NCBI GenBank assembly: GCA_012974305.1
Contig: JAAXQN010000213.1
Span: 1 to 52,509 of the forward strand
Source: Candidatus Methylomirabilis sp.
GTDB lineage: Bacteria; Methylomirabilota; Methylomirabilia; Methylomirabilales; CSP1-5
Direction: 5' to 3'
Length of the DNA: 52,509 nucleotides
Part shown: in pieces, positions 10,376 to 26,963 of the stretch
Layout of the letters: the number at the start of each line of letters is the position of its first letter
Position numbering within the stretch: the first letter of the stretch is position 1
Program-made: the position numbers and the translations under genes
Notes under the pieces: generated by a model
The model's database searches: none
Seen by the model: only the letters and a program-made list of their open reading frames with translations
What the model was told of the DNA's origin: nothing

Positions 10376-10444
10376 TGCGTTTGAACTACTAGGGGTAGCT
10401 CAACCATATGCGGTAGATTCGAGCCTCTGCTTCGGAAATAAATA

Positions 10445-10473
10445 TTGACAATTTCACTGCGGCTTACTAATAG
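10445..10473 (+). promoter_or_regulatory. Putative sigma-70 promoter for the glycoconjugate operon
   Basis: TTGACA (10445-10450), a 17-nt spacer, then TAATAG (10468-10473). An AT-rich 'GGAAATAAATA' tract precedes it. Confidence 0.4.
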
Positions 10474-10582
10474 AGGAAGGATTCTTTTGTCCACCCCCTC
10501 CCCGGAGAACGGCGTGTGCCTGCCCCCCAAGTCCGGGGCGGAGATATCAGATAGGCCCCAGGACTTCGACCCGGGGTCAACG

Positions 10583-11392
10583 ATGTCCACGCTAATATCC
10601 ATGAATTTCGGCGAACGCGTCTCTGCGTATGAGGCCTACCTCGAGAGCCCACACGGGCGCCTCCGCTCGGAGATCGTCTGGCAACAGTTATCGAGCTTCA
10701 TGGCAAAGTCATGGAGCCCTGAACCGCCCCCCCTTCAGGTCCTCGACATCGGTTGCGGGACCGGAGAACTTGCCCTTCGCCTTGCCGCTCGGGGCCACGC
10801 GGTGACCCTCCTCGACCCTGTCAAGCAAATGCTTGATCGCGCTCAGGAAAAGGCGCAAGTGCTGGAGCCTACTCCGAGTGTTCCGCCGCGGTTCATCGCT
10901 GGATCCGTCGAAGAAGCCCCCGATCTTACCGAAGGAAAAACCTTTGACCTCCTCCTTTGCCACACCGTTGTCGAGTACTTGCCGAGCCCTGAGAGTGCCC
11001 TGGTCCCGTTGTGTTCTCTTTTGAACTCGGGAGGATTCCTCTCCCTCGTTGCACTGAACCACTGGCAAGGGCCCCTCCGACATGCCATTCGGGACCACAA
11101 ATTCGATGAAGCGAAAAGGGCCCTCGCCGGAGAGTCATTCAGAGATACAGTCTTCGAACTTCCCCGCAAGGCGGTGGTCCCCGAAGAGCTTCACAACCAC
11201 CTCGAGGCCGCCGGGATCGAAATCATTGATCAGGGAGGAATTTTGGTCTTTTCAGACTACCTGCCGCCGGCGATGCTCGACGATCCGTCCCATGCCCCCA
11301 CCCTGTTTCGCCTGGAATTGGAGGCCGGAGCCCTCTCTCCTTTCAAGGATGTGGCCCGCTACCTTCATCTTTGGGGACGACGGGCAGGATAA
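10583..11392 (+). CDS. Class I SAM-dependent methyltransferase (SmtA/CmoM-like architecture)
   Basis: 'VLDIGCGTGELALRLAARGHAVTLLDPVKQML' is motif I plus the acidic loop. I placed the start at ATG 10583; the track ORF begins at 10445 inside the promoter. Confidence 0.8.
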   Translation: MSTLISMNFGERVSAYEAYLESPHGRLRSEIVWQQLSSFMAKSWSPEPPPLQVLDIGCGTGELALRLAARGHAVTLLDPVKQMLDRAQEKAQVLEPTPSVPPRFIAGSVEEAPDLTEGKTFDLLLCHTVVEYLPSPESALVPLCSLLNSGGFLSLVALNHWQGPLRHAIRDHKFDEAKRALAGESFRDTVFELPRKAVVPEELHNHLEAAGIEIIDQGGILVFSDYLPPAMLDDPSHAPTLFRLELEAGALSPFKDVARYLHLWGRRAG

Positions 11393-11407
11393 CCAAAAAG
11401 GACACGA

Positions 11408-12088
11408 ATGCACATCACGGTCATCATTCCAGCTCTGGATGAAGAGGCGGCCATCGGTGCGGTGGTGCGGGACATCTCCCGAGACCTCGTTGAGGAGATT
11501 GTCGTCGTGGATAACGGAAGCACCGACCGCACGGCAGAGGTGGCACGAGCTGCCGGCGCCAGGGTGATTCACGAGCCAATGCGTGGCTACGGTGCGGCCT
11601 GTTTGGCCGGAGCAATGGCGGCGCAGGATGCCGACATCCTCGTCTTTCTCGATGGCGATAGAAGCGATGACCCCGCTGAAATGCCCGTCGTCTTGCGACC
11701 GATTCTGGATGGCCAGGCCGACCTGGTGGTTGGATCGCGAACGACTGGCGTCACCGAGAAGGGGGCCCTCACATCCCAACAGCGGTTTGGCAACCGGCTG
11801 GTGACGAGGATGGTGTGGCTCCTCTACGGTCTCACCTTGACCGACATCGGTCCCTTCCGGGCCATCAAAGGACCAGTCCTTTGGGACCTCGGGATGGAGC
11901 ACAAGACGTATGGATGGCCTGTGGAGATGATCGTCAAGGCGGCCAAGAAGGGATATCGAGTCGTGAACGTCCCAGTCAGTTGTCGCAAGAGAATCGGCCG
12001 GTCAAAGGTGGCAGGCACGCTGAAAGGCAGCCTCCTGGCCGGCTATCATCTGCTCTCCACCACTATGCGGTATGCCTGGAGGAGGTAA
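11408..12088 (+). CDS. GT2 glycosyltransferase, polyprenyl-phosphate sugar synthase-like (DPM1/Ppm1-type)
   Basis: 226 aa. 'VIIPALDEE', 'VVVDNGSTDRT' and 'LDGDRSDDP' (the DxD region) are present, and the protein is short and soluble like GT2 enzymes of this type. Confidence 0.8.
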   Translation: MHITVIIPALDEEAAIGAVVRDISRDLVEEIVVVDNGSTDRTAEVARAAGARVIHEPMRGYGAACLAGAMAAQDADILVFLDGDRSDDPAEMPVVLRPILDGQADLVVGSRTTGVTEKGALTSQQRFGNRLVTRMVWLLYGLTLTDIGPFRAIKGPVLWDLGMEHKTYGWPVEMIVKAAKKGYRVVNVPVSCRKRIGRSKVAGTLKGSLLAGYHLLSTTMRYAWRR

Positions 12089-12092
12089 CGCA

Positions 12093-13085
12093 ATGGCATT
12101 CTCCGTCGGTATCGGTCTCACCAACGAATGTAATCTCCGTTGTCCTCATTGCTACCGGCCGGATATGGTGATTGACCGTCTCACGTTTCAGGATATCCGG
12201 CAGGTTTGCGAAAGCATTCCGATCAGATCGATGAACCTGGGGGTCGGAGAAAATGGACTCCACCCCGAATATCAGGCCATTCTCGATTATCTCTGGGACC
12301 GAGGGGTCAAGACGACGATCACCTCCAACGGCTTGAGCATTCAAGCCCTCACAGACCAGGCGGTGAAACGCTTTCACAGCGTGGAGTTCTCACTGGACTT
12401 CCCCACGGAACGGGAGCATGACGCCTTCAGGGGACAGGGGAACTGGCGAGGAGTGATAACCGCGATCGAGCGGTGTGCCGACATCGGCCTCTCGGTCACG
12501 GTGACGTCGGTCATGATGAGCATCAACTACAACAAATTGGGGGATCTTGCCAAGGTGGCTTCCTCGCTGGGCGCCAATCTCAGAGTAAACGTCTATCAAC
12601 CCGCAAAGACCGATCAGTTCACTCTGACGTACGACCAATTCTGGCAAGGCATCAAGCGGCTGCTGGGGAGTGCTCGTCTTGTGGCCACCACCGAGCCCGT
12701 CCTCGCCGCAGTGTTGGGTATCGAGGAGTTCGCCGGCCCGGCATGTGGCCGTACGACGGTCCGCGTGGCCCCTGACGGCCGCATCCTTCCCTGTACCTAC
12801 TGGCCCAACAGTCGACTGACCCTTGCCGATCTCGCCACACTCGGAGAGCAAATCGTGCAGGCGCCGGAGTTCCTCGAGGCAACGCAGCCCCCCCCAGCGT
12901 GCGACGGCTGTCCGTGTCTAGGAGGCTGTGCGGGCAGGCGAGCCTTGGTTGGTGGCCTTCATCAATCCGATCCGTACTGTCCCTTTGTGCGAAAGGATAG
13001 GATCCTTATCGACTGGGAACAGGTGCCGGGGCAAGATCTCCCCAAGGTGGGGAGTGCCTGTACGACCGTTGTCTCGGCGAGGTAG
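12093..13085 (+). CDS. Radical SAM / SPASM-domain protein
   Basis: 'NECNLRCPHCY' is a CX3CX2C motif. The C-terminal Cys cluster 'CGRTTVRVAPDGRILPC...CDGCPCLGGCAGR' matches SPASM. The ATG at 12093 lies 7 nt after SD GGAGGAGG. Confidence 0.85.
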   Translation: MAFSVGIGLTNECNLRCPHCYRPDMVIDRLTFQDIRQVCESIPIRSMNLGVGENGLHPEYQAILDYLWDRGVKTTITSNGLSIQALTDQAVKRFHSVEFSLDFPTEREHDAFRGQGNWRGVITAIERCADIGLSVTVTSVMMSINYNKLGDLAKVASSLGANLRVNVYQPAKTDQFTLTYDQFWQGIKRLLGSARLVATTEPVLAAVLGIEEFAGPACGRTTVRVAPDGRILPCTYWPNSRLTLADLATLGEQIVQAPEFLEATQPPPACDGCPCLGGCAGRRALVGGLHQSDPYCPFVRKDRILIDWEQVPGQDLPKVGSACTTVVSAR

Positions 13086-13106
13086 AGCTTGGTTTGGAGG
13101 AATGAG

Positions 13107-14114
13107 ATGAACGAGCCAAAGCGTCCACTGACTGTCGCAAAATTACCCCGGACTCTTTATCTTGAAACGACCAATCGCTGCGACTCAAAATGCCAGACGT
13201 GCATCCGGACCTTTCTGACCAACGAACCTCCCAAGGACCTCACGCTGGCGGAGCTCCAGGGAATCGTGGATCAGTTCCCGGTGCTGGAGCGGGTGGTCCT
13301 GCACGGGATCGGTGAGCCCCTCCTGAACCGAGAGCTTTTCGAGATGGTCGTGTACCTCAAGACCAAGGGGGCGGCCGTCGTGTTCAACTCTGACGCCATT
13401 AGCCTCACCCCGAAGCGTGCCATCAAGCTCATGGAGAGTGGCCTCGACGAATTTCGGGTCTCCATGGACGGCGCGACCCGTGAAACGTACGACAAGATCC
13501 GTGGCGTAGATCAGTTCGACCGGGTCGTCGAAAACGTGACGCATCTCATGGATCAGCAACGGAAGCTCGAGCGGCAGACGCCCCGCGTCTCCCTCTGGTT
13601 TACCGCCATTAAGGCCAATCTTGATGAGCTTCCGGCCTTTGTCCGCCTGGCCGCTCGCGTGGGGGTCCCAGAAGTCTACGTCCAGCGCCTTGTCTTCAAC
13701 AACCTGGGGATGGCCGTGGCCGAGCAGTCGCTGCACCACACGCTGCAAGAGCGGGAACAACGCTTGATCGAGGAGGCGGAAGGGCTGGCCCGCGAATTCG
13801 GGATGGCGTTCAAGGCCTCAGGCCTGACGACACCGATGGCCAGTCTCCAGGGCACAGAGCTCGCCAGTCGTCCCTGGTCCGGCTGCCAGCGACCATGGAC
13901 ACTCAGCTACGTGACCGCGAATGGCAACGTCCTGCCCTGCTGCATTGCCCCATTCTCGGCCAAAAACTATCGCGGGGCCCTTCTAGGTAATGCCTTTACC
14001 GAGGATTTTTCACGCATCTGGAACGGAGAACCGTATCAGCAGTTTCGAGAAACCTTTGAAAGCGATGTCCCTCCCGATGCCTGCCGGGGATGCGGACTGC
14101 TGTGGAGCATTTAA
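13107..14114 (+). CDS. Radical SAM / SPASM-domain protein (second copy, different subfamily)
   Basis: 'TNRCDSKCQTC' is a CX3CX2C motif. C-terminal 'CQRPWTLSYVTANGNVLPCCIAP...CRGCG' completes the SPASM region. SD GGAGGAA precedes ATG 13107. Confidence 0.85.
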   Translation: MNEPKRPLTVAKLPRTLYLETTNRCDSKCQTCIRTFLTNEPPKDLTLAELQGIVDQFPVLERVVLHGIGEPLLNRELFEMVVYLKTKGAAVVFNSDAISLTPKRAIKLMESGLDEFRVSMDGATRETYDKIRGVDQFDRVVENVTHLMDQQRKLERQTPRVSLWFTAIKANLDELPAFVRLAARVGVPEVYVQRLVFNNLGMAVAEQSLHHTLQEREQRLIEEAEGLAREFGMAFKASGLTTPMASLQGTELASRPWSGCQRPWTLSYVTANGNVLPCCIAPFSAKNYRGALLGNAFTEDFSRIWNGEPYQQFRETFESDVPPDACRGCGLLWSI

Positions 14115-14124
14115 GGAGGACACC

Positions 14125-14646
14125 ATGGGGTCTGGATTGATACGGGGCGGTCCCCCGATTTCCGTTGCACTCTTTCGGATGACGTTCGGTATCCTCTGGC
14201 TCGATTTGGCCTTGCAAAAGGCCCCGTGGGTCATCAACGACGGTCATCGCTTCGGGTGGCTCTACGGTTTTATCTGGACAGAGATCAAGAATCCCACGTT
14301 CGAATTCTATAAGAGCTTCCTCCATGACATCGTCCTGCCCAACTTCAACACCTTTGGCTATCTCACCTTCTTCAACGAGATGTTTTTTGGGATCTCGCTC
14401 CTCCTGGGATGCTTTACGGTTCTTGGGGGGATTGGTGGGGCCCTGTTCCAGGTCAACATTATGTTAGGCGCATACTCGGTGCCCGGCGAATGGTACTGGG
14501 TGTGGCCGCTCTTGATCTTCCCACAGCTGGTCTTTGCGCACACCCGGGCGGGACGCACCGTGGGAATAGATCGGCTGCTTTACGACCGGCTTGCTGGCGA
14601 GGCCGAGCCAGCGGGGATCAGAAAACTGCTCCTCTGGCTTGTCTAA
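14125..14646 (+). CDS. DoxX-like small integral membrane protein
   Basis: 173 aa with about 4 TM segments. The ATG at 14125 follows SD AGGAGGA. The track ORF begins at 13990, inside the upstream gene. Confidence 0.5.
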   Translation: MGSGLIRGGPPISVALFRMTFGILWLDLALQKAPWVINDGHRFGWLYGFIWTEIKNPTFEFYKSFLHDIVLPNFNTFGYLTFFNEMFFGISLLLGCFTVLGGIGGALFQVNIMLGAYSVPGEWYWVWPLLIFPQLVFAHTRAGRTVGIDRLLYDRLAGEAEPAGIRKLLLWLV

Positions 14647-14656
14647 GGGGGTGTCG

Positions 14657-16027
14657 ATGGGCTGGAGGAGTCGCTCCTTCCTTTTGCTCGCCGGGGTGGG
14701 GATTATATCGACGCTCCTATACCTCGCAAACTTCCGGCTCGCGCCCTTCCTGCAATATCTCGGCATGATCGACCCAAAACGGGGAGCGCTTGCCGCATAC
14801 CCCTATCTGTTCTTTCTTCTCTTCGCCCTCTACGGACTCGCGCTTGTTTCCGTCCTCAGGAAGCGGTCCGGACCTTCCCTGCTCGGCCTGATCCTAGGAA
14901 TTGCCCTACTTTTCCGGGTCACCCTGCTTGTTTCCCCCGTCGTCCTCTCAAGCGACATTTACCGCTATGTCTGGGATGGTCGGGTCCAGATGGCCGGGAT
15001 CAGCCCGTATCTGTACCCCCCCTCAGCTCAAGAGCTCACTCCGCTTCGAGATGAACAGATCTTTCCCCACATCAATCGACCAGAGGCTCGCACCATCTAT
15101 CCTCCGGGCGCGCAAATGTTCTTTGCACTGAACGCCAAACTCTTCCCCGACAGTATCAATGCCTTGAAAGCAATCATGATGCTGTTCGACATCGGTACAA
15201 TCCTTTTGATCCTGACTCTCCTGAAAAAAACAGGATTCCGTTCGGATCGGGTGCTGCTGTACGCGTGGTCACCCCTGGTGCTTTTTGAGCTCGCCGGAAG
15301 CGGCCATCTCGAGGCGGTGATGCTCCCCTTTGTTCTGCTCGCCATCCTGGCGAGAATGAGCGGAAAGCCGGGCCTCGCTGGAGTGACGCTCGGCATGGCC
15401 ACTTTGATCAAACTGTATCCGGCGGCCCTGCTCCCCGTTCTGTACCAGAGGGGTGACAGGCGGTTCCCGCTTGCCTTTGGGGCCACTATCCTCCTCGGGT
15501 ACCTGCCCTATTTCTACGGCGCCGGCGGGAAGGTGTTGGGTTTTCTTCCTGCCTACTTCGGCCGCTGGGAGGACTTTAACGTCGGTCTCCGGTATTTCCT
15601 TACTTTGGCCCTGACTCCACTCACCGCCTCTCCCCGCCTCGTTGCGATGCTCTGCGTCACCGCCCTTCTTGGTGCGATAGCCCTCTACCTTGTACGGAAA
15701 GGGGAAGGACAAGACTTTCCCTGGCGCGCATACGTGATGGTGAGTGCCTACCTTCTCCTGCTGCCGACGAGTTTTCATCCATGGTACCTGATCTGGATCC
15801 TCCCCTTCCTTTGCCTCTACCCCTCGTGGGGCTGGCTGTATCTCAGTGGATCGATTAGCTTGTCTTACCTCAAATACGTCCAAGACCTCGGGATCCTTCC
15901 CCTCGGGATTCGGCTGTTGGAGTTCCTCCCCCTCTACGTGCTGCTTGGGTTGGAGGCCTTCCGGCATCGTCACTCGGAAGCGCATTCCGACGAGGTCATG
16001 ACGTTCATGATGGAGAAATCGCCATGA
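14657..16027 (+). CDS. GT-C fold polyprenyl-phosphate-sugar-dependent glycosyltransferase (DUF2029 / GT87-like)
   Basis: About 456 aa and polytopic. 'SSDIYRYVWDGR' in the first loop is the typical GT87/DUF2029 motif. Start placed at ATG 14657. Confidence 0.7.
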   Translation: MGWRSRSFLLLAGVGIISTLLYLANFRLAPFLQYLGMIDPKRGALAAYPYLFFLLFALYGLALVSVLRKRSGPSLLGLILGIALLFRVTLLVSPVVLSSDIYRYVWDGRVQMAGISPYLYPPSAQELTPLRDEQIFPHINRPEARTIYPPGAQMFFALNAKLFPDSINALKAIMMLFDIGTILLILTLLKKTGFRSDRVLLYAWSPLVLFELAGSGHLEAVMLPFVLLAILARMSGKPGLAGVTLGMATLIKLYPAALLPVLYQRGDRRFPLAFGATILLGYLPYFYGAGGKVLGFLPAYFGRWEDFNVGLRYFLTLALTPLTASPRLVAMLCVTALLGAIALYLVRKGEGQDFPWRAYVMVSAYLLLLPTSFHPWYLIWILPFLCLYPSWGWLYLSGSISLSYLKYVQDLGILPLGIRLLEFLPLYVLLGLEAFRHRHSEAHSDEVMTFMMEKSP

Positions 16028-17604
16028 TACCTTCGAGCATCCCCCTCGTGCTTTTGCTTCTCGTCTATTTTGTCTCGCTCTTTTTTCTCTTCCTCTATGG
16101 GATCAATTGCTACGTCATGATCTTTCTCCACCGCCGCGCGAAAGCGCAGATGCTGCGACAAGATGAAGAGGTCTGGAAGGGATGGCAGGCTGCGGACCAC
16201 CAACTCCCATGGGTCACGGTGCAACTGCCGATCTACAACGAGCGATACGTCATCCAGCGACTGATCGAAGCCGTGGTGCTCTTGGACTATCCGAGGGACC
16301 GGCTCGAGATCCAGGTCCTCGATGACTCCACAGATGAGACCACGGCCATCGCCACCCCGCTTATCGAGCGCTATCGGCAGGCAGGATTTGATATCACACT
16401 CCTTCATCGCGCCAAAAGGACCGGATACAAGGCCGGAGCGCTCAAGGAAGGACTCGGCGTCAACCGGGGAGAGTTCATTGTCATTTTTGACGCCGACTTC
16501 ATTCCCGACCCGGATTTCCTGATGAAAACCCTCCCCTTCTTCCAGGATCCTTCCATCGCCATGGTCCAGGTCCGGTGGGGACACATCAACCGCGACTATT
16601 CCCTCCTCACGTTAGCCCAGAGTTTTGGGATCGACGGCCACTTCTACGTGGAGCAGGCAGCCCGCTGTTGGTCGGGCCTCTTCATGAACTTCAATGGCAC
16701 CGCCGGGATCTGGCGGCGAAAGGCCATCGACGACGCCGGGGGTTGGCAAGCGGACACCTTGACAGAGGATCTGGATCTGAGCTACCGGGCGCAGCTCAAG
16801 GGCTGGCGGATGAAATTCTTGCCGCAGGTCGTTTGTCCGGCCGAGGTCCCGGTGCAGATGTCCGCCGTCAAAAGTCAACAGCACCGATGGGCCAAGGGCT
16901 CGATCCAGACCGCCATAAAGCTCATTCCACAGATTCTGAAGGCTGATGTCCCCCTGTTTACCAAGTATCAAGCGATCTTCCATCTCACGAACTACATGGT
17001 CCATCCCCTCATGCTGGTCGTGGCCATGAGCTCGCCACTGCTGCTCTGGTTTGAGGGATTCTTTTCACTCCGGGAGCATCTCTTTGCGGCGGCAGCCTTC
17101 TTTTCGATCGCGACCTTTGGGCCTTCCAGCATGTACCTGTATGCGCAAAAGCATTTGTATCCCGACTGGAAGCAACGGCTCCGGTACTTTCCGTCCCTGT
17201 TGATCTTCGGGACCGGAATCGCCCTGAACAATACCAAGGCTATCCTGGAGGCCTTCTTGAACGTGGACGGAGCATTCGTGCGAACCCCGAAATTCCGCAT
17301 CGAAAAAGGGTCCGACACCTGGGTGGGCAAGCGATATCGCCCCCCCATACCTTGGTTGAGTTTCCTCGAGGGCCTCGTCGCGCTCTACTGCATCTACGGC
17401 GTATCTCTATTTATCGAGCGGGCCCGGCTCGTCGATCCCTTCCTTCTCCTCTACACTATGGGATTCGCTACTGTGGCCTTGTATAGTCTCTGGGAGGCCC
17501 TTCGGAGTGCCACAAAACGCCCAGAAAGCATCAGCGAAGCCCCGGCAGAGCCTCAGCCCGTCACGGCGTCAGTCGTCTCAGCGAAAGGGAGACCGATGAC
17601 ATGA
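16024..17604 (+). CDS. Membrane GT2 glycosyltransferase, cellulose-synthase-like (CslA / glucosyl-diacylglycerol-synthase type)
   Basis: Contains 'LPIYNE', 'VLDDSTDET', 'FDADF', 'TEDLDLSYR' and the 'QQHRWAKG' QxxRW motif. ATGA overlap with the upstream gene. Confidence 0.85.
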   Translation: MIPSSIPLVLLLLVYFVSLFFLFLYGINCYVMIFLHRRAKAQMLRQDEEVWKGWQAADHQLPWVTVQLPIYNERYVIQRLIEAVVLLDYPRDRLEIQVLDDSTDETTAIATPLIERYRQAGFDITLLHRAKRTGYKAGALKEGLGVNRGEFIVIFDADFIPDPDFLMKTLPFFQDPSIAMVQVRWGHINRDYSLLTLAQSFGIDGHFYVEQAARCWSGLFMNFNGTAGIWRRKAIDDAGGWQADTLTEDLDLSYRAQLKGWRMKFLPQVVCPAEVPVQMSAVKSQQHRWAKGSIQTAIKLIPQILKADVPLFTKYQAIFHLTNYMVHPLMLVVAMSSPLLLWFEGFFSLREHLFAAAAFFSIATFGPSSMYLYAQKHLYPDWKQRLRYFPSLLIFGTGIALNNTKAILEAFLNVDGAFVRTPKFRIEKGSDTWVGKRYRPPIPWLSFLEGLVALYCIYGVSLFIERARLVDPFLLLYTMGFATVALYSLWEALRSATKRPESISEAPAEPQPVTASVVSAKGRPMT

Positions 17605-19250
17605 TCCGACCGCCGTGGAGAGTCGTGGGGAGAACTGCCCTCGGGGCACTCAGCGTCTTTTTACTCGGGATGCTCTTGTATCTCGGAGAGGGTTTCCGTC
17701 CCGCCACCGTTGCCGGGCAGGCAAGCCAAGCCTTGGCCAAGTCTCCCTGGCCCAAGTACCGCGGTGATAAGACGCTTACTGGTCGAAGCACCCACACCGG
17801 ACCCGCATCGAACCGGCTCAGGTGGACCTTCTCAACGGGCAGGCGGGACAAGGAAGGAGGAATCGAAACGGACCCGGTGATCGGTCCGGACGGGACCGTC
17901 TATTTTGGGGCGAACAACGGGATCTTTTACGCGCTCGACCCCGACAACGGGGATATCCGTTGGGCCTTTCCGACCGGCTTTGACATCTTTGCGATTTATT
18001 CCTCGCCCTATGTCGACTCGAACGGGATCGTCTATTTTGGCGCCAAGGACGGGACCGTGTACGCTCTGAGGGCACCGCCCAGGGGGATCATGGGAGAGGT
18101 GGTATGGTCCTTTAACATCGGAACCACAATTCAGACCTCGCCGACCTTCACCCCTGATGGGACCCTTGTCATCGGTGCCGACGACTGGGCCTATTACGGG
18201 ATCACCCCACCTCAAGGGACCGCGGGCCCGAAGGTGAAGTGGCGGTTTCAGACGCAAGGGACCCTCATCACCTCTCCCGCGGTAGACGCCGATGGGACCG
18301 TTTATGTGGCTTCAATGGATGGGAAGGTCTACGCCCTCGAGCCGCCCAAGGACGCGGGACAGCCGGTTAAGGTTCGGTGGACGTTCAGCTCGGGGGCGCG
18401 GGATGCCGAAGGGGGATTCGAGAACGCCCCAGCCATCGACGACAAGGGAACACTATACATCGCTGGAAACAACGGGATCCTCTATGCCCTTGATTCGAAG
18501 ACGGGAGAGGAGAAATGGACCTTCGATGCCGTGGCGCGGGCTGGTTACCGGACGTTTGCGATCTTCTCTTCGGCCGCCATCGGGTCAGAGCAAACCATTT
18601 ATTTTGGGGGAAAGAACGGTGTCCTGTATGCCATCCGCGAGAGCAGAGGCTTCTTCTCGACTGGTGCAAAAATTCTTTGGCGGTACAATTTGGGGCCGGG
18701 CATTCAGACCTCTCCCCTGCTTGCGGTCGACGGGACGATCTACCTCGGCGATGAGAAAGGGACCTTCCATGCGGTTCGGCCCCCCGAATCAGGCGAGTGG
18801 TCAACTCCTCTGTGGAAGTTCGCCACGAAGGGGATCTTGATCTCTTCCGCCGCCCTCGCAGCTGATGGGACCCTCTATACCGCCTCGATGGACGGAAACG
18901 CATACGCCTTTCACGACACAAAAAAGGGGAAACCTTCCCAAGGGCCCCTATCAGGCACGTGGTACGGTACCTACAGCGATTCCGGCAGCATGGGACGAAT
19001 CACCCTCGTGCTCGTGCAGAGAGGCGAGGAAATTCAAGGGGTCTGGAGGGTAGAGGGGGGTTCCCGAGGCTCTCTGGAAGGAAAGGCGGAAGCGGGCGGG
19101 GGAAGCTTTGCCCTCCGTCCATTGTCGGAAAAATGTCCGGGAAGTGGCGAAGGCACCATCAGGATCGACGGCACAAAGCTCAGTGGCGAGTACCGTGGCC
19201 AGGATTGCCGGGGGAAGATCGACGATGGCAAATTCGAAGTACAGCGGTAA
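17601..19250 (+). CDS. Membrane-anchored PQQ-like (BamB-type) beta-propeller repeat protein
   Basis: 'DGTVYFGANNGIFYALD..G...W' blades recur many times. N-terminal TM anchor. ATGA overlap with the upstream GT2. Confidence 0.8.
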   Translation: MIRPPWRVVGRTALGALSVFLLGMLLYLGEGFRPATVAGQASQALAKSPWPKYRGDKTLTGRSTHTGPASNRLRWTFSTGRRDKEGGIETDPVIGPDGTVYFGANNGIFYALDPDNGDIRWAFPTGFDIFAIYSSPYVDSNGIVYFGAKDGTVYALRAPPRGIMGEVVWSFNIGTTIQTSPTFTPDGTLVIGADDWAYYGITPPQGTAGPKVKWRFQTQGTLITSPAVDADGTVYVASMDGKVYALEPPKDAGQPVKVRWTFSSGARDAEGGFENAPAIDDKGTLYIAGNNGILYALDSKTGEEKWTFDAVARAGYRTFAIFSSAAIGSEQTIYFGGKNGVLYAIRESRGFFSTGAKILWRYNLGPGIQTSPLLAVDGTIYLGDEKGTFHAVRPPESGEWSTPLWKFATKGILISSAALAADGTLYTASMDGNAYAFHDTKKGKPSQGPLSGTWYGTYSDSGSMGRITLVLVQRGEEIQGVWRVEGGSRGSLEGKAEAGGGSFALRPLSEKCPGSGEGTIRIDGTKLSGEYRGQDCRGKIDDGKFEVQR

Positions 19251-19256
19251 TCGCCT

Positions 19257-20636
19257 ATGGGTTCGCCTACTCAGCGTGAGGGAAGCGACCCTCTGATGGC
19301 TGCGCCACAGACCACTCCCCTTCCGATTGGCGGACGCGTCCTGGCACGTCCCTCAACGTCGCTCGCCCCGCGCATCATGATCCTCGGCGGCGGATTCGCA
19401 GGCGTGACCACCGCCCTCGAGCTGGCCAAACGGACCGCCGGCGTCTTGCCAGTCGACATTACCCTCGTGAGCGAGCAAAATTTCTTTTTATTCACTCCCA
19501 TGCTGGCCGAGGCTGCCACCGGAGCCGTCGAGACTCGTCACGTCCTCTATCCCATCCGTCCCCTGTGTGGGAAATGGGGCGTTGAATTCGGAGAGATGTC
19601 GGTCGAGGCCATCGATCTCGATCGGCGCCGAGTGATCGTCCGCCATCGCCGGTCAGCGGTCCGCCAGCGGGTGCACTATGACAAGCTCGTGCTTGCCCTT
19701 GGCGCCACCCCCACCGTGGACATCGCCCCCGGAGCGGCGGAGCACGCCCTGCCCTTCAAGGAGGCAGGGGACGCCATGCGTATTCGCAACCATGTGATCA
19801 ACCTTTTTGAATCGGCCGCCTTGACAGACGATCCCTGGGTCCAGCGGCAACTCCTCACGTTCATCGTGGTGGGAGCGGGTCACGCCGGGACCGAGCTGAT
19901 GGCCGCCCTGGAGGAACTGACGCGTGGAATCCTCCTCTCACACTATCCCTCGATTCGCCAAGACAGCGTACGCCTCGTCCTCGTCGGAAGCACTATCCTT
20001 CCCCAGACGGTGACGAAGCTTGCTGCTTATGCCCAGGAGCAACTGCTTGCCCGAGGGATCGAGCATGAGAAGGCACGGGCTGCCGCGGTATCACGGGAAG
20101 GACTGACCCTCAAAGACGGGCGCACCATCCCGAGCCAGTGTGTCATTTGGACTGCCGGAACCCGGGTGAGCCCTGTGGTGGCCAGCCTCCACCTCCCCAA
20201 AGCGCGGGACGACCGCTTGAAAGTGAACGAATTCTTCGAAGTCGAGGGGGCGCGTGACGTATACGCGCTGGGTGATAATGCTGCCCAGATCAATCCTCAT
20301 ACCGGAGCCCCCTACGTGGCAACCGCTCAGGTGGCTATCCGCCAAGCACGGGCGCTCGCGGACGTGTTGGAGGCAGAGCTTACCGGCGGGCAGAAGAAAC
20401 CTTTCCGGTTCCGGGTACTTGGAGAGATGGTACCTCTCAGTCGGCGGACCGCCGTCGCCGATCTGAGTGGGGTCAAGCTCGTCGGCTTTCCGGCCTGGTT
20501 TATCTGGAAAACCATCTACATGCTAAAGCTCCCCACCCTGGCGGCCCGCGTGCGGGTCGTCCTGGACTGGACGGTCGAGCTGTTCTTCGAGCGAGATGTT
20601 TCGGAACTCACCGTCAAGCCAGAGCAAGAGACCTGA
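19257..20636 (+). CDS. ndh: Type II NADH dehydrogenase-like FAD/NAD(P) oxidoreductase (NDH-2)
   Basis: The first dinucleotide fold is 'ILGGGFAGVTTALEL' and the second is 'IVVGAGHAGTELMAAL'. A 'GD' motif lies near the C-terminus. The start is uncertain (19257 or 19296). Confidence 0.75.
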   Translation: MGSPTQREGSDPLMAAPQTTPLPIGGRVLARPSTSLAPRIMILGGGFAGVTTALELAKRTAGVLPVDITLVSEQNFFLFTPMLAEAATGAVETRHVLYPIRPLCGKWGVEFGEMSVEAIDLDRRRVIVRHRRSAVRQRVHYDKLVLALGATPTVDIAPGAAEHALPFKEAGDAMRIRNHVINLFESAALTDDPWVQRQLLTFIVVGAGHAGTELMAALEELTRGILLSHYPSIRQDSVRLVLVGSTILPQTVTKLAAYAQEQLLARGIEHEKARAAAVSREGLTLKDGRTIPSQCVIWTAGTRVSPVVASLHLPKARDDRLKVNEFFEVEGARDVYALGDNAAQINPHTGAPYVATAQVAIRQARALADVLEAELTGGQKKPFRFRVLGEMVPLSRRTAVADLSGVKLVGFPAWFIWKTIYMLKLPTLAARVRVVLDWTVELFFERDVSELTVKPEQET

Positions 20637-20637
20637 C

Positions 20638-22050
20638 ATGAATGAAGGTCCCATACGGAAACCCGTCAAGGCTCGCTTGCCGGTCTGGCGTCGACTCGGG
20701 GTGCGCCTGGGTGCCAGCTTCCTTCTGGTCACCGCAGTCGCGATCTTCCTGAGCGGTCTCCTCCAATACTGGGACCAGAAGGAGCGGCTCCGGGAAAACT
20801 TGGCATCCCGGCTGCTGGCTATAGCGGGTACCGGTGCTTTGTTACTGGACGGGGACCTTCACCAGCGGGTTGTGACGGAAGGAGGGAAAGACACACCGGC
20901 CCATGAAAAGATCCGTTCACAGCTCCTGCAGATTGAGAAGACAAACCAGCTCAGGGACCGGGTCTATACACTCGTTGACGTCAAGGGGGATAAGGCGAAG
21001 TTCGCCGTCTTTAGCCGGGGAGAAGAATCGATTGGAAAGCATTATTCGCTTGCTCGGGAGACTCAGCCTATCCTGCATCAGGTTCTGAAGGAGGGGAAAC
21101 CAGCATACACGGACATCTACACGAACGTGCACGGAACCTGGATTACCGCGTTTGCCCCAATCCAAAATACGGCAGGTGAAATCGTGGCCACTCTGGAGGT
21201 CGACTACCGGGTTGACGTCTATCTCGAGCAGTTGAGGACGATAATGCTCTGGCTCTACATCAACTCGCTGGCCGGTGCCATGCTCGCACTGGTGGCTGGG
21301 GTGATTCTCGCCCGGCAAATCACCCGCCCCGTGGGCCAACTGTCAAGGATGGCCCGGCGGGTCGTTGAGGGAGACCTCACCACTCCGGAACGCATTAAGT
21401 CCCGAGACGAGATTGGCCTGCTCGGCAACGTGCTCCACCTCGTGGTCGAGCGGGTCCACCTTTCCCACCGGAACGTGGTGGATGTTCTGGTGCGGGTGGT
21501 ACAGGCACAGAGCAGAGAGACCGGGTCACTTTCGCAATTAGCGGGTGCCGCGCTCGCCCTGGCGGATCGCTTGGACCTCTCCACTACTCAGCGCGAGGCG
21601 TTAGAGCTGGGTGCGCTACTCCACGATATCGGCGAGATCCGCGTCCCTGATGCAGTGCTGGAAAAGGCTGGTCCATTGACGCCCGAGGAACGGGGACTCG
21701 TCCAGCAGCATCCTGCGTGGGGTGTGGAGATCCTCGAGACAGTACCGGTGCTCACCCCGGCCCTTGATGTGGTTGGTGGACATCACGAGCGATACGACGG
21801 CGGTGGGTACCCCCAAGGCCTGCGCGGGGAAGAAATCCCTCTCACGGCCCGGATCTTTGCGGTAGTGGACTCGCTGGACGCCATGATCCACGACCGGCCG
21901 CACCGGCGTGCCCGCCCGGTTTCCGAGGCGCTGGAGGAGCTGCAGAGAGAGTCGCAGAAGCAGTTTGACCCGCGGTTCGTGGATGCGGCTCTGAAAATCC
22001 CGCCAGAGCGTTGGGCGGAGCTGTTAGTTCGCCATGTGAGCACTGAATGA
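20638..22050 (+). CDS. Membrane sensor protein with HAMP and HD-GYP domains (cyclic-di-GMP phosphodiesterase type)
   Basis: 'LHDIGEIRVP', 'HHERYDGGGYPQGL' and 'DSLDAM' motifs follow a HAMP-like linker after the second TM segment. The ATG at 20638 lies 1 nt after the upstream stop. Confidence 0.85.
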   Translation: MNEGPIRKPVKARLPVWRRLGVRLGASFLLVTAVAIFLSGLLQYWDQKERLRENLASRLLAIAGTGALLLDGDLHQRVVTEGGKDTPAHEKIRSQLLQIEKTNQLRDRVYTLVDVKGDKAKFAVFSRGEESIGKHYSLARETQPILHQVLKEGKPAYTDIYTNVHGTWITAFAPIQNTAGEIVATLEVDYRVDVYLEQLRTIMLWLYINSLAGAMLALVAGVILARQITRPVGQLSRMARRVVEGDLTTPERIKSRDEIGLLGNVLHLVVERVHLSHRNVVDVLVRVVQAQSRETGSLSQLAGAALALADRLDLSTTQREALELGALLHDIGEIRVPDAVLEKAGPLTPEERGLVQQHPAWGVEILETVPVLTPALDVVGGHHERYDGGGYPQGLRGEEIPLTARIFAVVDSLDAMIHDRPHRRARPVSEALEELQRESQKQFDPRFVDAALKIPPERWAELLVRHVSTE

Positions 22051-22104
22051 CTCAAGGGTAACCCACATGGCGCCCGTGAGTGCTAATTGCCGTGTGCGGC
22101 CACT

Positions 22105-24768
22105 ATGATCATGGATCTTCTCATCACTATTCGGCATCGTCCCTCACCAACAGCTCCCCGCACATTAGGGCTACTCTCTTTCATCCCTTGGCTCCAGTTG
22201 TTCGGCGCACTGTTGGCTTTCGTACTCATCGCTTTCTTTACCGCGACGCAAAGCGATCTCTCCAACTATATCTCCCCGGGAGAAAGTCCGTTCTTCCAGT
22301 GGATCAGGATCCACATCACCGAGTTCCTCTGGCTTGGGCTCGCGTACCTCGTGCTCACCTCGATCCTGCAGTACGTGGCAATGCGCGGCGCTCGCGAGAA
22401 CTTTCCCCGTGCCGTGACTGCTTTGGTGGGGCTGGAATTGTGCGCGGTTGGCATGCTCGCGTACGCGCTCGTCTACCGGTGGGACGGGCTGTTGGGCTGG
22501 GGACACACGCTGCTCCAATTATCTCTCTTAGTCCAGATTTATCTGATGCTCTGGCGCCTGCACGAACCAGCGCCAAAGCAACCCGATCGCATTCTGGAGT
22601 TCCGGGACACAGGTGGTGTGCTATTTCTCTCGTCGCTTTTCTTCTTCGCTGCTCTCCCCGTGTTCGTCGATCCCTCCTGGCAGCACATGCAGCAATATAC
22701 GCAGTTGGATTCCAGCCGTGAGCTCATCCTGAGTCGACTCTTCCCGGCAGTGATTTCAGGTGTGACCGGCATGTGGTTCGGGATCGGGACCTTGGTGTTG
22801 TTGGCCGGGGTGCGGTTTTTCTCGAGGAGACTGGACGTCTACCCGCGCCTGCGGAGCTGGGTCCCCTTCCTTCCCTTCTTCTCCATCGCTGGACTCTATG
22901 TCGCGCTATGCCTGATGTCCCTGGCGTATGCGATCGCATGGGAGCTCCGTGCGCTCCGCCTCGACACTGCCTTAGCGCCCCTGTTCATTTTTCTGGCTGG
23001 AGGCGGAGGAGCCGTGAGTTACGCCGCCTTTCGACGGATTGCACCCCTTGCTCCCCGAAATAGCGGCCACAGCCTGATCGGAATGATCACCCTCTCCATG
23101 GGAGCTGCGCTGGTATTCCCGGTCACGTGGCTCCTAACCCGCCGCGGGTGCGGTCGATGGGCCTGGCGGCTTGTGCTGGCCTCTTCGCTGTTGGCACCTC
23201 TGGTATTGGGGTACTTGGTGGTGTACGGTGATCTTTTTAATCCCTGGTACACGGTGTTTTCCTACCTAAAAGGCGCCATGTTGAAGATCGCCGCCGTGAT
23301 CGCGGCGGGAATCCAAGTCTTAATCTTTGAGGAGCTTCGCGTATCTGACTCAGTCCGCCAGACTGAAACAAAGAGGCGGTGGGTTGTGATTGCTGCCACC
23401 GTTGCCGCAGGGTTCCTTCCGTTCGCTGCGCTTGAGCAATACCGAGAAATCAAGGCCTCCATGTTAGAGTCCAACGAGTTCAGTATCGTCGATGCGACCT
23501 ATGCGAGAGCGTTGTCCGATCTCGTGGGAGCAGAAAGTTGGGCCCGCCTGGGTCAGGATCCAAAGCCCAACCACCATCAAGAACCTTGGCCCCTCCCCTG
23601 GACCTTAAAAAAAACCGGTCCCTCTCTCCTTCCTGAGAATTTCAATCTCATCGTGATTGTCGTGGATGCGCTCCGCGGGGATGCCTTTCACTCCTCAGGA
23701 TATTATCGCAATCTCACTCCCTTTTTGGACCAGTGGGCCAACGAGGAAGCCATTGCTTTCCGCCGAGCCTATAGTCAGGGAGGCGGAACGTTCGCTGCCT
23801 TTCCCTTCTTGGTTGCTGGAAGAAGCCGTTTTACCATGTATGGGCCACATCTGCAGCACGAGAATCTCTTTTTCAAGATCGCACAAGCCGAGGGCATACA
23901 AAAGATAATGGTGGTGAAGGAGTTCGGACCTCGGGCGATATTTCCCCCAGATTATCCGGTCATCGAATTGCGTGGATCACGGCCCGCTAGTGATCAACAC
24001 TCGGTTCCTGCCGACGAAGTGTTCGGCTGGGCCCAAGATGCCATTACGAAGCATGTCAAGGGGGAACGGTTCCTTGCCTTTCTCCACCTGATGGATGTGC
24101 ATAATGATCTGTGGAAGAAAGCAGATGGCATAGACTTTGGCAACAGCCTGAGGGACCTCTACGACAACAACCTTTCGTATGTGGACAAGGCATTTCACAG
24201 GTTCGTCGTGTGGTTGAAACGCCATGGCATTTACGATCGAACCGTCATCTTACTGATCTCTGACCATGGTGAGCAGTTCTGGGAACATGGAGCAAGCCTT
24301 CACGGCCACACCGTGTACGAAGAGGAGATTCGGATCCCCCTGATCCTGCTGGTGCACGGCATTCGAGGGCAGGTGGATGTTCCGGTGGTCGCCGCAGATA
24401 TAGCGCCCACCTTGGCTGAGCTGGCGGGCTACGCAGTCCATCCGCCATACAACGATCCCCACATGGGGATCTCCCTTGTTCCTCTCCTGCTCGGAAAGGA
24501 ACAGGACCGGTATCTCCACAGGGATATCGTTGGAAGGGCGTCTTTTAAGCGCCGATTCTTTCTGTATCGGAATTGGGAATGGAAATTGGTCTACTCTGCC
24601 GAATTCGATCTTTTGCAGCTGTTCAATACAGTCAAAGACCCCATGGAGAGGAGTAATCTGCTCCAAGAGGAACCGGAGCTGGCAACTGAGCTGGAAATGG
24701 AATTACTGGGATATCTCGAAAAAGTGGAGGGAAAATCCTATCGGAGGCTTCTCTCGAACATTTGGTGA
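22105..24768 (+). CDS. Polytopic membrane protein with C-terminal alkaline-phosphatase-superfamily (sulfatase-like) transferase domain
   Basis: About 430 aa of TM segments are followed by 'IVIVVDALRGD', 'GGGTFAAFP' and 'LISDHGEQFWEHG...HGHTVYEEEIRIPL'. Start uncertain (22087 TTG or 22105 ATG). Confidence 0.8.
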   Translation: MIMDLLITIRHRPSPTAPRTLGLLSFIPWLQLFGALLAFVLIAFFTATQSDLSNYISPGESPFFQWIRIHITEFLWLGLAYLVLTSILQYVAMRGARENFPRAVTALVGLELCAVGMLAYALVYRWDGLLGWGHTLLQLSLLVQIYLMLWRLHEPAPKQPDRILEFRDTGGVLFLSSLFFFAALPVFVDPSWQHMQQYTQLDSSRELILSRLFPAVISGVTGMWFGIGTLVLLAGVRFFSRRLDVYPRLRSWVPFLPFFSIAGLYVALCLMSLAYAIAWELRALRLDTALAPLFIFLAGGGGAVSYAAFRRIAPLAPRNSGHSLIGMITLSMGAALVFPVTWLLTRRGCGRWAWRLVLASSLLAPLVLGYLVVYGDLFNPWYTVFSYLKGAMLKIAAVIAAGIQVLIFEELRVSDSVRQTETKRRWVVIAATVAAGFLPFAALEQYREIKASMLESNEFSIVDATYARALSDLVGAESWARLGQDPKPNHHQEPWPLPWTLKKTGPSLLPENFNLIVIVVDALRGDAFHSSGYYRNLTPFLDQWANEEAIAFRRAYSQGGGTFAAFPFLVAGRSRFTMYGPHLQHENLFFKIAQAEGIQKIMVVKEFGPRAIFPPDYPVIELRGSRPASDQHSVPADEVFGWAQDAITKHVKGERFLAFLHLMDVHNDLWKKADGIDFGNSLRDLYDNNLSYVDKAFHRFVVWLKRHGIYDRTVILLISDHGEQFWEHGASLHGHTVYEEEIRIPLILLVHGIRGQVDVPVVAADIAPTLAELAGYAVHPPYNDPHMGISLVPLLLGKEQDRYLHRDIVGRASFKRRFFLYRNWEWKLVYSAEFDLLQLFNTVKDPMERSNLLQEEPELATELEMELLGYLEKVEGKSYRRLLSNIW

Positions 24769-24793
24769 CACCGTCACCAACACCCTCTGGAAA

Positions 24794-26415: not shown

Positions 26416-26963
26416 AGAAACCGTCAGAGATCCCGTGGAAGACCCTCTCCAGCAAACCTATCTACAGCAATAAATGGCTCTCCCTCCGAGAAGATGTGGC
26501 AGAGCTGCCCGATGGACGCACGACCATCTATGGCGTGGTCACGTGTGGCCATTGTGTCGGTATCCTCCCCTTCTTAGATCCCGACACCGTGCTGCTGATT
26601 CAGCAATACCGTTACGTGGCCCAACGGGTAACATGGGAGATGCCCACGGGAGGATCCCATGCCGGCGAATCGACTGAGGAGGCGGCCCAACGCGAACTCG
26701 CTGAGGAGATTGGCTACCGCGCCGGCCGACTGGTCCCCGTGAGCACCTATCACACCAGCAAGAGCGTCATGGACGAGACGGCCCACCTCTTTCTCGCCGA
26801 AGAGTTGGTCAAACTGGAGCGGCCGCCCCGCGATGAGACGGAGTTCATTGAGATCCGCCCCTTCCCCTTTCGTGAGGTTCTGCAGATGGTCCTTGCCGGC
26901 GAGATCGTGGATGGCATGACCGTAATTGCCGTACTTCTCGCCGCCCGCCTGAAAACCTGCTGA
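26412..26963 (+). CDS. Nudix hydrolase (ADP-ribose/NDP-sugar pyrophosphatase-like)
   Basis: Nudix box 'GGSHAGESTEEAAQRELAEEIGY'. ATGA overlap with the DUF2064 gene. Confidence 0.85.
   Translation: MKKPSEIPWKTLSSKPIYSNKWLSLREDVAELPDGRTTIYGVVTCGHCVGILPFLDPDTVLLIQQYRYVAQRVTWEMPTGGSHAGESTEEAAQRELAEEIGYRAGRLVPVSTYHTSKSVMDETAHLFLAEELVKLERPPRDETEFIEIRPFPFREVLQMVLAGEIVDGMTVIAVLLAARLKTC

Follow-up and report, generated by a model that had tools for sequence, protein, structure and literature searches.

Introduction

In Mycobacterium tuberculosis, the capping of lipoarabinomannan with methylthioxylose (MTX) is described as the work of two enzymes: the GT2 glycosyltransferase MtxS (Rv0539) makes a decaprenyl-phosphate-linked MTX donor, and the GT-C enzyme MtxT (Rv0541c) transfers MTX outside the membrane (PMC8780516, PMC12088412, PMC11127046). 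In the account given by one of these reports, the donor originates from 5'-methylthioadenosine (MTA), and the existence of an MTX reaction outside lipoarabinomannan assembly is called unclear (PMC11127046). Judged by layout, and with the proteins compared by description only, this pathway appears to be the closest described system to a gene cluster that we analyze here in a 52,509-nucleotide stretch of DNA (contig JAAXQN010000213.1, hereafter the window) from Candidatus Methylomirabilis sp., whose genome assembly is 2.8 Mb and 94% complete. Just as the MTX pathway relies on a GT2 to produce an unusual pentose linked to polyprenyl phosphate and then on a GT-C enzyme to transfer it outside, the window has a small soluble GT2 (GT2s) and a GT-C enzyme of the GT87/DUF2029 type (GT87). 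It differs in that a radical S-adenosylmethionine (SAM) enzyme, rSAM2, stands where a short-chain dehydrogenase/reductase (SDR) epimerase would be; in the addition of a second radical SAM enzyme (rSAM1), a methyltransferase (MT), a DoxX-like membrane protein, and a Nudix hydrolase; and in its hosts, which are NC10, Rokubacteria, and Chloroflexota, not actinomycetes. Angala and colleagues are said to have described, in 2017, a five-gene MTX cluster with an epimerase of the GalE type, an MTA phosphorylase, and a putative nucleotidyl-transferase among its products. In that case the SDR-type clusters that we describe below would have the MTX layout, and the window would hold its radical SAM variant. 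A search of the window's genome with the MTA phosphorylase model TIGR01694 returned only a 45-residue fragment (35.8 bits; cut-off, 274.85).

Three further groups of known systems resemble parts of the cluster. Among the three-component polyprenyl-phosphate-sugar systems named in PMC11127046 are GtrA/GtrB/GtrC, ArnC/ArnT, PpgS/Rv3779, and the Citrobacter pentofuranose system with GT136. They share with our proposed scheme a cytoplasmic synthase that charges polyprenyl phosphate, a GT-C enzyme that uses the donor outside, and auxiliary epimerases that diversify the sugar, whereas the cluster has no GtrA, SMR, or MATE flippase, its GT-C enzyme is interchangeable (GT87, DUF2079, or PMT_2), its tailoring enzyme is a radical SAM protein, and a DUF2064 protein and a Nudix hydrolase would supply the donor. 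The ArsS set (TIGR04167, TIGR04282, and TIGR04283) likewise combines a radical SAM enzyme, a DUF2064 protein, and a small GT2, and the DUF2064 protein of the window scores above the TIGR04282 cut-off. GT2s, however, is not a TIGR04283 protein (55 bits over the N-terminal 90 residues only; cut-off, 182), neither rSAM1 nor rSAM2 is ArsS, and the cluster includes a GT-C enzyme. Nothing in the genome exceeds the TIGR04167 cut-off of 300 bits, the best match being 58.5 bits at 35715-36152, with 35.1 bits in the rSAM1 region. Finally, rSAM2 has the radical SAM core and C-terminal auxiliary [4Fe-4S] domain of BtrN, DesII, and BlsE, from which it differs in sequence (16 to 19% identity) and in a context of GT2, DUF2064, and GT-C genes unlike that of antibiotic pathways. 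Its spare conserved cysteine, which could return a hydrogen atom, recalls HygY and NeoN, which are carbohydrate-modifying radical SAM epimerases.

Our full-text literature searches found no paper describing this combination. We consider it somewhat more probable than not that the cluster is a modular cassette that serves to attach an unusual sugar to an extracytoplasmic acceptor and that rSAM2 tailors that sugar, much as an SDR does in sister clusters.

Results

Conserved core of the cassette

The core of the cassette was derived from about 130 related loci. Those compared by tblastn and all-versus-all clustering of open reading frames (ORFs) comprised 12 from relatives, 80 from an rSAM2-profile scan with one genome per species, and 2 from Acidobacteriota. 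What is conserved is GT2s, a DUF2064 protein, rSAM2, and some GT-C enzyme; rSAM1, MT, DoxX, Nudix, a membrane GT2 (GT2m), and a PQQ-like propeller are optional or lineage specific. The four core genes of the window are as follows.

11408-12088, + strand: GT2s, small soluble GT2 of 226 aa (PF00535)
13107-14114, + strand: rSAM2, radical SAM enzyme whose auxiliary-cluster domain is of the twitch type and BtrN-like (PF04055 and PF13186)
14657-16027, + strand: GT87/DUF2029-type GT-C enzyme (PF09594, 36 bits; cut-off, 25)
25732-26415, + strand: DUF2064/TIGR04282 nucleotidyl-transferase-like protein (TIGR04282, 178.7 bits; cut-off, 134)

An earlier note on this DNA, written from the sequence alone, had suggested a core of two radical SAM enzymes, DoxX, and GT87 and had not recognized the combination. 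The loci replace that core with the one given above. The combination is not unique: it turns up in hundreds of genomes, and it appears to have a characterized cousin in the mycobacterial MTX pathway. Neighbors were counted within 8 kb of rSAM2 at loci flanked by 5 kb or more on either side, of which 26 were from Chloroflexota and 11 were labeled Methylomirabilota.

GT2s: Chloroflexota 24/26; Methylomirabilota-labeled 11/11
DUF2064: Chloroflexota 23/26; Methylomirabilota-labeled 11/11
GT87: Chloroflexota 6/26; Methylomirabilota-labeled 10/11
rSAM1: Chloroflexota 5/26; Methylomirabilota-labeled 10/11
Nudix: Chloroflexota 3/26; Methylomirabilota-labeled 8/11
DoxX: Chloroflexota 3/26; Methylomirabilota-labeled 6/11
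GT2m: Chloroflexota 0/26; Methylomirabilota-labeled 5/11
PQQ propeller: Chloroflexota 0/26; Methylomirabilota-labeled 3/11
MT: Chloroflexota 2/26; Methylomirabilota-labeled 2/11

The distribution of rSAM2 within the phylum is patchy. Across 200 Methylomirabilota genomes at least 80% complete, rSAM2 occurs in 75 (among them only 7 of the 19 from the genus to which the complete genome G036 belongs) and a GT2s orthologue in 78; 69 genomes have both, 6 have rSAM2 only, 9 have GT2s only, and 116 have neither. A TIGR04282 protein is present in 72 of the 75 rSAM2-positive genomes. Outside the phylum, rSAM2 orthologues are found in Chloroflexota (46 to 55% identity), where the isolates Ktedonobacter robiniae, Dictyobacter alpinus, and Tengunoibacter tsumagoiensis carry them, and in Acidobacteriota, where 2 of 200 sampled genomes do so beyond the center genome, whose match looks misbinned. 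Some 30 loci of Ktedonobacteria, those of the three cultured isolates included, reduce the cassette to a tight trio of GT2s, DUF2064, and rSAM2 with start-to-stop overlaps and unrelated flanks; the whole genome of K. robiniae has no rSAM1 and just one GT87 homologue, some 60 kb away from the trio. The two Acidobacteriota genomes have DUF2064, GT87, rSAM2, and GT2s contiguously. GT87 accompanies GT2s in three phyla, and elsewhere the GT-C partner is swapped for a DUF2079 protein (in Anaerolineae) or a PMT_2 protein (in other Chloroflexota). All-versus-all clustering of 4300 ORFs from 93 loci yielded no further conserved members, only antisense shadow ORFs and lineage-specific flanks.

Two contigs in public metagenome-assembled genomes (MAGs) are probably misbinned or mislabeled: L040 (DATJQT010000335, labeled Baltobacteraceae) encodes a GT2s identical to that of the Methylomirabilota locus L014, and L061 (DATIEW010000676, labeled Vicinamibacterales) is 65 to 71% identical to genes of Rokubacteria.

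Alternation of rSAM2 with an SDR

The main result of the comparison concerns clusters that lack rSAM2. Loci without rSAM2, 6 from Methylomirabilota and 20 from Chloroflexota, were chosen by similarity to GT2s. Four of the six from Methylomirabilota have an SDR epimerase/dehydratase in the cluster, immediately upstream: in L116 and L117 an HpnA-like SDR precedes GT2s, L113 has the order GalE-like SDR, GT2s, DUF2064, and Nudix, and L112 that of GalE-like SDR, rSAM1, GT2s, DUF2064, and GT87/Nudix. In a sample of 201 Chloroflexota genomes, rSAM2 occurs in 17, GT2s in 38, and both in 16, and 11 of the 20 Chloroflexota loci without rSAM2 have a GalE-like SDR in the cluster. At three of these (L121, L127, and L128) the order is GT2s, DUF2064, and SDR, which places the SDR in the very slot that rSAM2 holds in Ktedonobacteria. 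Conversely, when three cluster-associated SDRs served as tblastn queries, neither the window nor any of about 93 loci with rSAM2 gave a match.

In a maximum-likelihood tree built from 102 GT2s sequences, the two kinds of cluster are interleaved. The well-supported branches of this tree force at least five switches of the rSAM2 label and at least six of the SDR label; L112 and L113, for example, which have an SDR, group with L049 and L079, which have rSAM2, at 99/84 support. Repeated nonorthologous displacement is the simplest reading, and rSAM2 and the SDR would then do equivalent, or at least alternative, jobs on the same intermediate. This displacement is the new element of our analysis, and it lends comparative support to the suggestion in the earlier note of radical chemistry on a glycan or glycolipid, for which epimerization was one of the examples given.

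A third kind of radical SAM enzyme also occurs near the same chassis. At L126 (G545:C28, 3328-9827), and also at L129, there is an ArsS-type enzyme (Radical_SAM plus DUF3641); in L126 it lies 0.4 kb from DUF2064 and about 3 kb from a GT87-GT2m-GT2s block, with a PIG-L deacetylase there too.

The radical SAM enzymes

The second radical SAM enzyme and the methyltransferase are encoded as follows.

10583-11392, + strand: MT, SAM-dependent methyltransferase, CmoM/SmtA-like (Pfam Methyltransf_11/25; NCBIfam CmoM, 117.7 bits; cut-off, 366)
12093-13085, + strand: rSAM1, radical SAM enzyme with a SPASM-type C-terminal half (PF04055)

The two enzymes had been described as a pair of SPASM proteins, which is right for rSAM1 only. 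It alone has the full pattern of seven to eight SPASM cysteines, its invariant residues being C13/C17/C20 together with C218, C234, C273, C275, C279, C296, and C323. In rSAM2 the invariant cysteines are C25/C29/C32 (CxxxCxxC) followed by C260, C278, C279, C326, and C329, and these five auxiliary residues are spaced like those of the single-cluster twitch domain of BtrN, which is also the sole PDB sequence match of rSAM2 (E value of 1e-10 over residues 257-336). It is possible that four of the five ligate the cluster and that the spare one is a hydrogen-atom donor. The AlphaFold2 model of rSAM2 (mean predicted local distance difference test score, or pLDDT, of 92) finds DesII as its top fold match, followed by SuiB, SkfB, BlsE, and BtrN, with BlsE and BtrN in the top 13; DesII acts on a TDP-sugar, and BlsE is a nucleoside-sugar decarboxylase. 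The corresponding model of rSAM1 (pLDDT of 89) has the generic SPASM neighbors SkfB, BlsE, CteB, SuiB, and anSME, and the whole of rSAM1 is covered by the GeoRSP model (72 bits; cut-off, 400).

Neither enzyme reaches the cut-off of any curated NCBIfam family, those for cofactors and peptides included (best scores, 132.7 bits where the cut-off is 380 and 72 bits where it is 400), a result in keeping with the earlier note; assignment to a cofactor or peptide maturase family was rejected. Both begin directly with the radical SAM core, with no RRE or PqqD Pfam domain, and neither has a cobalamin or HemN-type domain, which makes the proposed C-methylation by these enzymes unlikely. The gaps in the array, at most 21 nt, leave no room for a precursor peptide; conserved ORFs shorter than 90 aa were not systematically searched. 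Maturation of the sulfatase-fold protein encoded at 22105-24768 by an anSME-like activity was also rejected, as that gene matches only L022 among the loci searched.

MT adjoins rSAM1 in L017, L018, L020, L021, L023, L073, L089, L091, and L100. We infer that the two form an optional tailoring pair, usually adjacent and sometimes present without rSAM2 (L112 and L114).

Glycosyltransferases and membrane proteins

Three membrane-associated products accompany GT2s and GT87 in the window.

14125-14646, + strand: DoxD/DoxX-like small polytopic membrane protein (PF04173, 27.9 bits; cut-off, 22.7)
16024-17604, + strand: GT2m, BcsA-like membrane GT2 with QQHRW (Pfam Glyco_tranf_2_3; NCBIfam CelA, 126 bits; cut-off, 699)
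17601-19250, + strand: PQQ/BamB-like beta-propeller with an N-terminal membrane anchor (PF13360 and PF13570)

GT2s is predicted from its sequence to be a polyprenyl-phosphate sugar synthase of the dolichol-phosphate-mannose synthase (DPMS), GtrB, or ArnC type. It aligns over its full length with the Pyrococcus DPMS (PDB 5mlz, residues 1-204) and with ArnC, and it scores 136.8 bits with the AglJ model and 91.7 bits with a dolichol-phosphate-hexose transferase model. It has no hydrophobic segment; its C terminus reads R-x-x-G-x-SK and then an amphipathic helix. GT87 is polytopic, with at least seven hydrophobic segments. In its first outer loop, S98-x-D100 and Y104 are invariant, D100 lying in S-x-D-x-Y-R-Y across 14 orthologues, and the protein is accordingly predicted to be an extracytoplasmic GT-C transferase with its catalytic Asp in that loop; it has no PDB sequence match. 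The pairing of a polyprenyl-phosphate-sugar synthase with a GT-C enzyme that had been read from this DNA is borne out by the alignments of GT2s and by the company that GT87 keeps with it in three phyla.

GT2m aligns with BcsA (4hg6) over residues 58-442, which include the catalytic domain and the channel helices, and has no PilZ match. It follows GT87 in 16 loci, is lineage specific, and may be a processive synthase that makes the acceptor polymer or glycolipid. The propeller, also lineage specific, has one N-terminal hydrophobic segment and is found in only 9 loci. DoxX, which contains hydrophobic segments, could be a quinone-linked redox partner or a flippase.

The DUF2064-Nudix pair

In the window, DUF2064 is coupled through an ATGA overlap to a Nudix gene.

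26412-26963, + strand: Nudix hydrolase, NudE/ADP-sugar pyrophosphatase-like (PF00293; NudE, 75.9 bits, below the cut-off)

The pair is displaced downstream here, 6.5 kb past position 19250, and lies inside the cluster in other genomes. DUF2064 is the sole TIGR04282 copy in the genome and matches PDB 3cgx (E value of 2.5e-26) and CofC.

The window also contains two TIGR04283 GT2 genes (42692-43384 and 49871-50590; 256.6 and 241.7 bits), an apparently split third copy (32236-32801), and, at 35688-36542, a radical SAM enzyme that resembles ArsS. All 52 kb may be an island of related sugar-transfer branches that draw on a single DUF2064. At L108 (G036:C1, 9549-14695), in the complete Methylomirabilis-type genome, DUF2064 is the final gene of an operon of overlapping oxidative pentose phosphate genes (gnd-zwf-pgl-glk), roughly 100 kb away from the radical SAM cluster; we dropped a tie to that operon, as the arrangement is not kept in genomes related to G036.

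Layout and boundaries of the array

The remaining features of the array are listed below.

10445-10473, + strand: candidate promoter, TTGACA-17 nt-TAATAG, within the only long intergenic gap (10376-10582)
19257-20636, + strand: NDH-2/SQR-like flavoprotein (Pfam/NCBIfam family matches; 6-nt gap upstream)
20638-22050, + strand: HAMP-HD-GYP phosphodiesterase (Pfam/NCBIfam family matches; 1-nt gap upstream)
22105-24768, + strand: sulfatase-fold membrane protein
Between the sulfatase-fold gene and DUF2064, + strand: YVTN propeller

The eight genes from MT to the PQQ-like propeller are confirmed, with Pfam and NCBIfam families that agree with the earlier note, and their spacing is tight: with starts supported by Shine-Dalgarno sequences, the gaps from MT to GT87 are 15, 4, 21, 10, and 10 nt, and two ATGA overlaps join GT87, GT2m, and the propeller. 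The unit does not end there as the note had it. Six further + strand genes follow past 19250 with gaps of at most 54 nt, as far as the Nudix stop at 26963, DUF2064 and Nudix having been missed; no convincing terminator was found within the array up to that point. The flavoprotein and HD-GYP genes are codirectional, and their synteny is confined to close relatives (L011, L014, L018, L020, L022, and L039).

The promoter at 10445-10473 is plausible, and the "good sigma-70 promoter" of the note is overstated. Its -35 hexamer is perfect, and the block GGAAATAAAnnTTGACAAT...GTTACTA containing it is conserved upstream of MT in three genomes of the same genus; its -10 hexamer, TAATAG, matches TATAAT at three of six positions and is without the final T. 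The site is absent from the list of a consensus scan, which gave 5 promoter-like sites in 9.5 to 27.6 kb against 5.6 expected from shuffles. Between 9000 and 27600, no Rfam riboswitch or leader RNA matched at an E value of 0.1 or less.

A genome of the same genus, G012 (96% complete), shows the region without most of the array. At L109 (G012:C7, 7266-10845), only about 1.6 kb, encoding a pyridine-nucleotide-disulfide oxidoreductase, separates TVP38 from the DUF2064-Nudix pair, and the whole 14-kb block from MT to the YVTN propeller is missing. Set against 10376-25750 of the window, this amounts to a presence/absence polymorphism within the genus.

The HD-GYP protein is of the cyclic di-GMP (c-di-GMP) phosphodiesterase type, and its gene comes after those of GT2m, the propeller, and the flavoprotein, an order that is syntenic in close relatives. 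Such a position would be consistent with a synthase-type polymer under the control of c-di-GMP, even though GT2m has no PilZ domain.

Redox neighbors

Redox proteins recur around the cassette. A divergent molybdenum enzyme of the sulfite dehydrogenase family lies beside GT2s-DUF2064 in some 20 loci, among which rSAM2-type and SDR-type clusters are both represented (for example, L059, 12563-14191; L128, 6025-7674; L131, 9589-10689; and L138, 6926-7759); one of the loci, in an Actinomycetota MAG, has the order aminotransferase, GT2, DUF2064, and molybdenum enzyme. The SorA and SoxC scores of the enzyme are under the cut-offs, and its match to MsrP is weak. Two copies are extended at the N terminus by about 250 aa. 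Its presence may indicate sulfur redox chemistry. Periplasmic electron carriers fused to CarboxypepD_reg, either multiheme cytochromes c or sulfocyanin-like cupredoxins, are found within cluster variants at L052 (4463-6526), L073 (10991-14454), L118 (6778-8133), and L119 (9564-10946); such fusions often occur with an EB_dh heme-domain protein and accompany a DUF2079 or PMT_2 GT-C enzyme. The redox-type proteins of the window itself are DoxD-like, SQR/NDH-2-like, and PQQ-like.

Discussion

The comparisons establish the families of the genes, the colocalization and joint inheritance of the core, and the mutually exclusive use of rSAM2 or an SDR. A pathway for the cassette can be proposed from them, in which we infer every substrate, the flippase, the acceptor, and how the steps are ordered. 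DUF2064 and the coupled Nudix protein would make or edit a nucleotide-activated sugar, and rSAM2, by abstracting a hydrogen atom, would retailor this sugar in its nucleotide- or lipid-linked form. The reaction would most likely be an epimerization, with four cysteines holding the auxiliary cluster and the fifth invariant one returning the hydrogen; the alternative would be an oxidation or dehydration at a ring carbon of the BtrN or DesII type. We cast rSAM2 as a radical sugar epimerase or oxidoreductase because an SDR alternates with it on an interleaved GT2s tree. GT2s would then move the sugar onto polyprenyl phosphate, the lipid-linked sugar would be flipped across the membrane, for which DoxX is the sole candidate in the cluster, and GT87 would transfer the sugar to an acceptor in the envelope. 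In this lineage the acceptor is possibly a polymer or glycolipid from the adjacent GT2m, a synthase-made product being suggested because GT2m and the propeller follow GT87 and HD-GYP is nearby. rSAM1 and MT would act as a second, optional tailoring pair.

Several observations weigh against this scheme. The loci were sampled by similarity to the cluster of the window, and related genomes are not independent, so that the counts are descriptive. The E values of the rSAM2 fold search for sugar- and peptide-acting relatives differ by no more than two logs, and the fold is therefore suggestive only and does not settle the substrate. No GtrA, SMR, MATE, or Wzx flippase family appears among the Pfam and NCBIfam matches of the 14 array genes. 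Nine of the 20 Chloroflexota loci without rSAM2 have no SDR either; two of these are too short to judge, one has a different radical SAM enzyme, and one has an ArsS-type enzyme (DUF3641). The mutual exclusivity of rSAM2 and the SDR would also follow if the two enzymes defined different sugars. A TIGR04282 protein is also present in 71 of the 200 Methylomirabilota genomes without rSAM2, and DUF2064-Nudix persists in G012 despite the loss of the block from MT to YVTN; DUF2064 is therefore not dedicated to the rSAM2 branch. It looks like a supply enzyme common to several branches, of which rSAM2 plus GT2s is one accessory branch.

Other activities for the radical SAM enzymes have to be set against the tailoring of a sugar. 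One is that rSAM2 builds the sugar itself by transferring a 5'-deoxyadenosyl group to a nucleophile, as ArsS, HpnH, and MqnE do, with DUF2064 and GT2s then processing a 5-substituted ribose, a route that has been proposed for arsenosugars. The mycobacterial MTX donor is reported to derive from 5'-methylthioadenosine (PMC11127046), DUF2064 is a bona fide member of TIGR04282, a family defined by its association with ArsS, an ArsS-type radical SAM enzyme does occur in L126, near DUF2064 and GT87-GT2m-GT2s, and the window holds an ArsS-like enzyme and two TIGR04283 glycosyltransferases. We nevertheless judge this activity unlikely for rSAM2, which carries a BtrN-like redox auxiliary cluster and is not among the TIGR04167 matches, the best of which (58.5 bits against 300) is another gene. 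The gene that most commonly alternates with it is, moreover, an SDR epimerase/dehydratase and not ArsS, and neither a nucleoside phosphorylase or nucleosidase in the clusters examined nor an MTA phosphorylase above the cut-off in the 94%-complete genome was found.

That same alternation bears on two readings in which the substrate is no sugar at all. The radical SAM enzymes might mature a protein, a peptide, or a metallo-cofactor, for instance that of a nearby periplasmic redox protein, and be mere neighbors of glycosylation genes. The highest NCBIfam scores of rSAM2 are indeed for a "tungsten cofactor oxidoreductase maturase" (132.7 bits) and a "putative metalloenzyme maturase" (127.2 bits), SuiB, SkfB, CteB, and anSME are among the fold neighbors, and redox neighbors recur (the SorA-like molybdenum enzyme in about 20 loci, the cytochrome c and cupredoxin fusions, and the PQQ-like propeller). 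All of the maturase scores are far under their cut-offs, however, there is no RRE domain, and gaps of at most 21 nt leave no space for a precursor gene; no single redox partner is kept across loci, and the trio of Ktedonobacteria overlaps start to stop amid unrelated flanks. Displacement by an SDR of the type that acts on nucleoside diphosphate sugars would be hard to explain for a maturase, and we hold this role to be quite improbable. Action on a lipid (the polyprenyl carrier or a membrane-spanning or ether lipid), in the manner of GDGT-MAS/Tes, is very improbable. Both enzymes match GDGT-MAS (7tol) weakly and the cluster is rich in membrane proteins, but these matches are confined to the radical SAM core (E value of 1.9e-4 in the sequence search), the score with the NCBIfam Tes model is 36.7 bits (cut-off, 450), the cassette has no lipid-synthesis genes, and alternation with an SDR of the nucleotide-sugar type points to a sugar.

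The redox neighbors, together with the parallels to MTX and to arsenosugars, allow a bolder version of the sugar-tailoring scheme, which we put forward tentatively and regard as rather unlikely. The cassette would install on an envelope polymer of NC10, Rokubacteria, and Chloroflexota a 5-deoxy-5-substituted pentose derived from the adenosyl group of SAM and bearing sulfur, selenium, or a similar group, of the methylthioxylose or arsenosugar kind. rSAM2 would be a radical C-epimerase that has exchanged places with a GalE-type epimerase repeatedly, rSAM1 and MT would build or vary the 5-substituent, and the redox partners (the SorA/MsrP-family molybdenum enzyme, DoxD, the SQR/NDH-2-like protein, and the cytochrome c and cupredoxin fusions) would keep the thioether/sulfoxide state in the periplasm. 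If this were true, MTX-like sugars would be a widespread feature of bacterial envelopes and not a mycobacterial curiosity.

The cassette would extend to environmental phyla the logic of the MTX pathway, whose occurrence elsewhere is a question that its discoverers raised (PMC11127046). The name of TIGR04282, "arsenosugar biosynthesis glycosyltransferase," is probably too narrow, and we suggest that DUF2064 is a general donor supply for several GT2 branches. The action of radical SAM enzymes on nucleotide- or lipid-linked sugars destined for envelope glycans, and not for antibiotics, is an essentially undescribed role for the superfamily. The natural and repeated swap between rSAM2 and an NAD-dependent SDR would provide a comparative handle on the radical enzyme and, in addition, a pair in which one member is oxygen sensitive and the other oxygen tolerant, and the cultured, nonpathogenic Ktedonobacteria (Ktedonobacter, Dictyobacter, and Tengunoibacter), which carry the minimal three-gene form, make the scheme testable.

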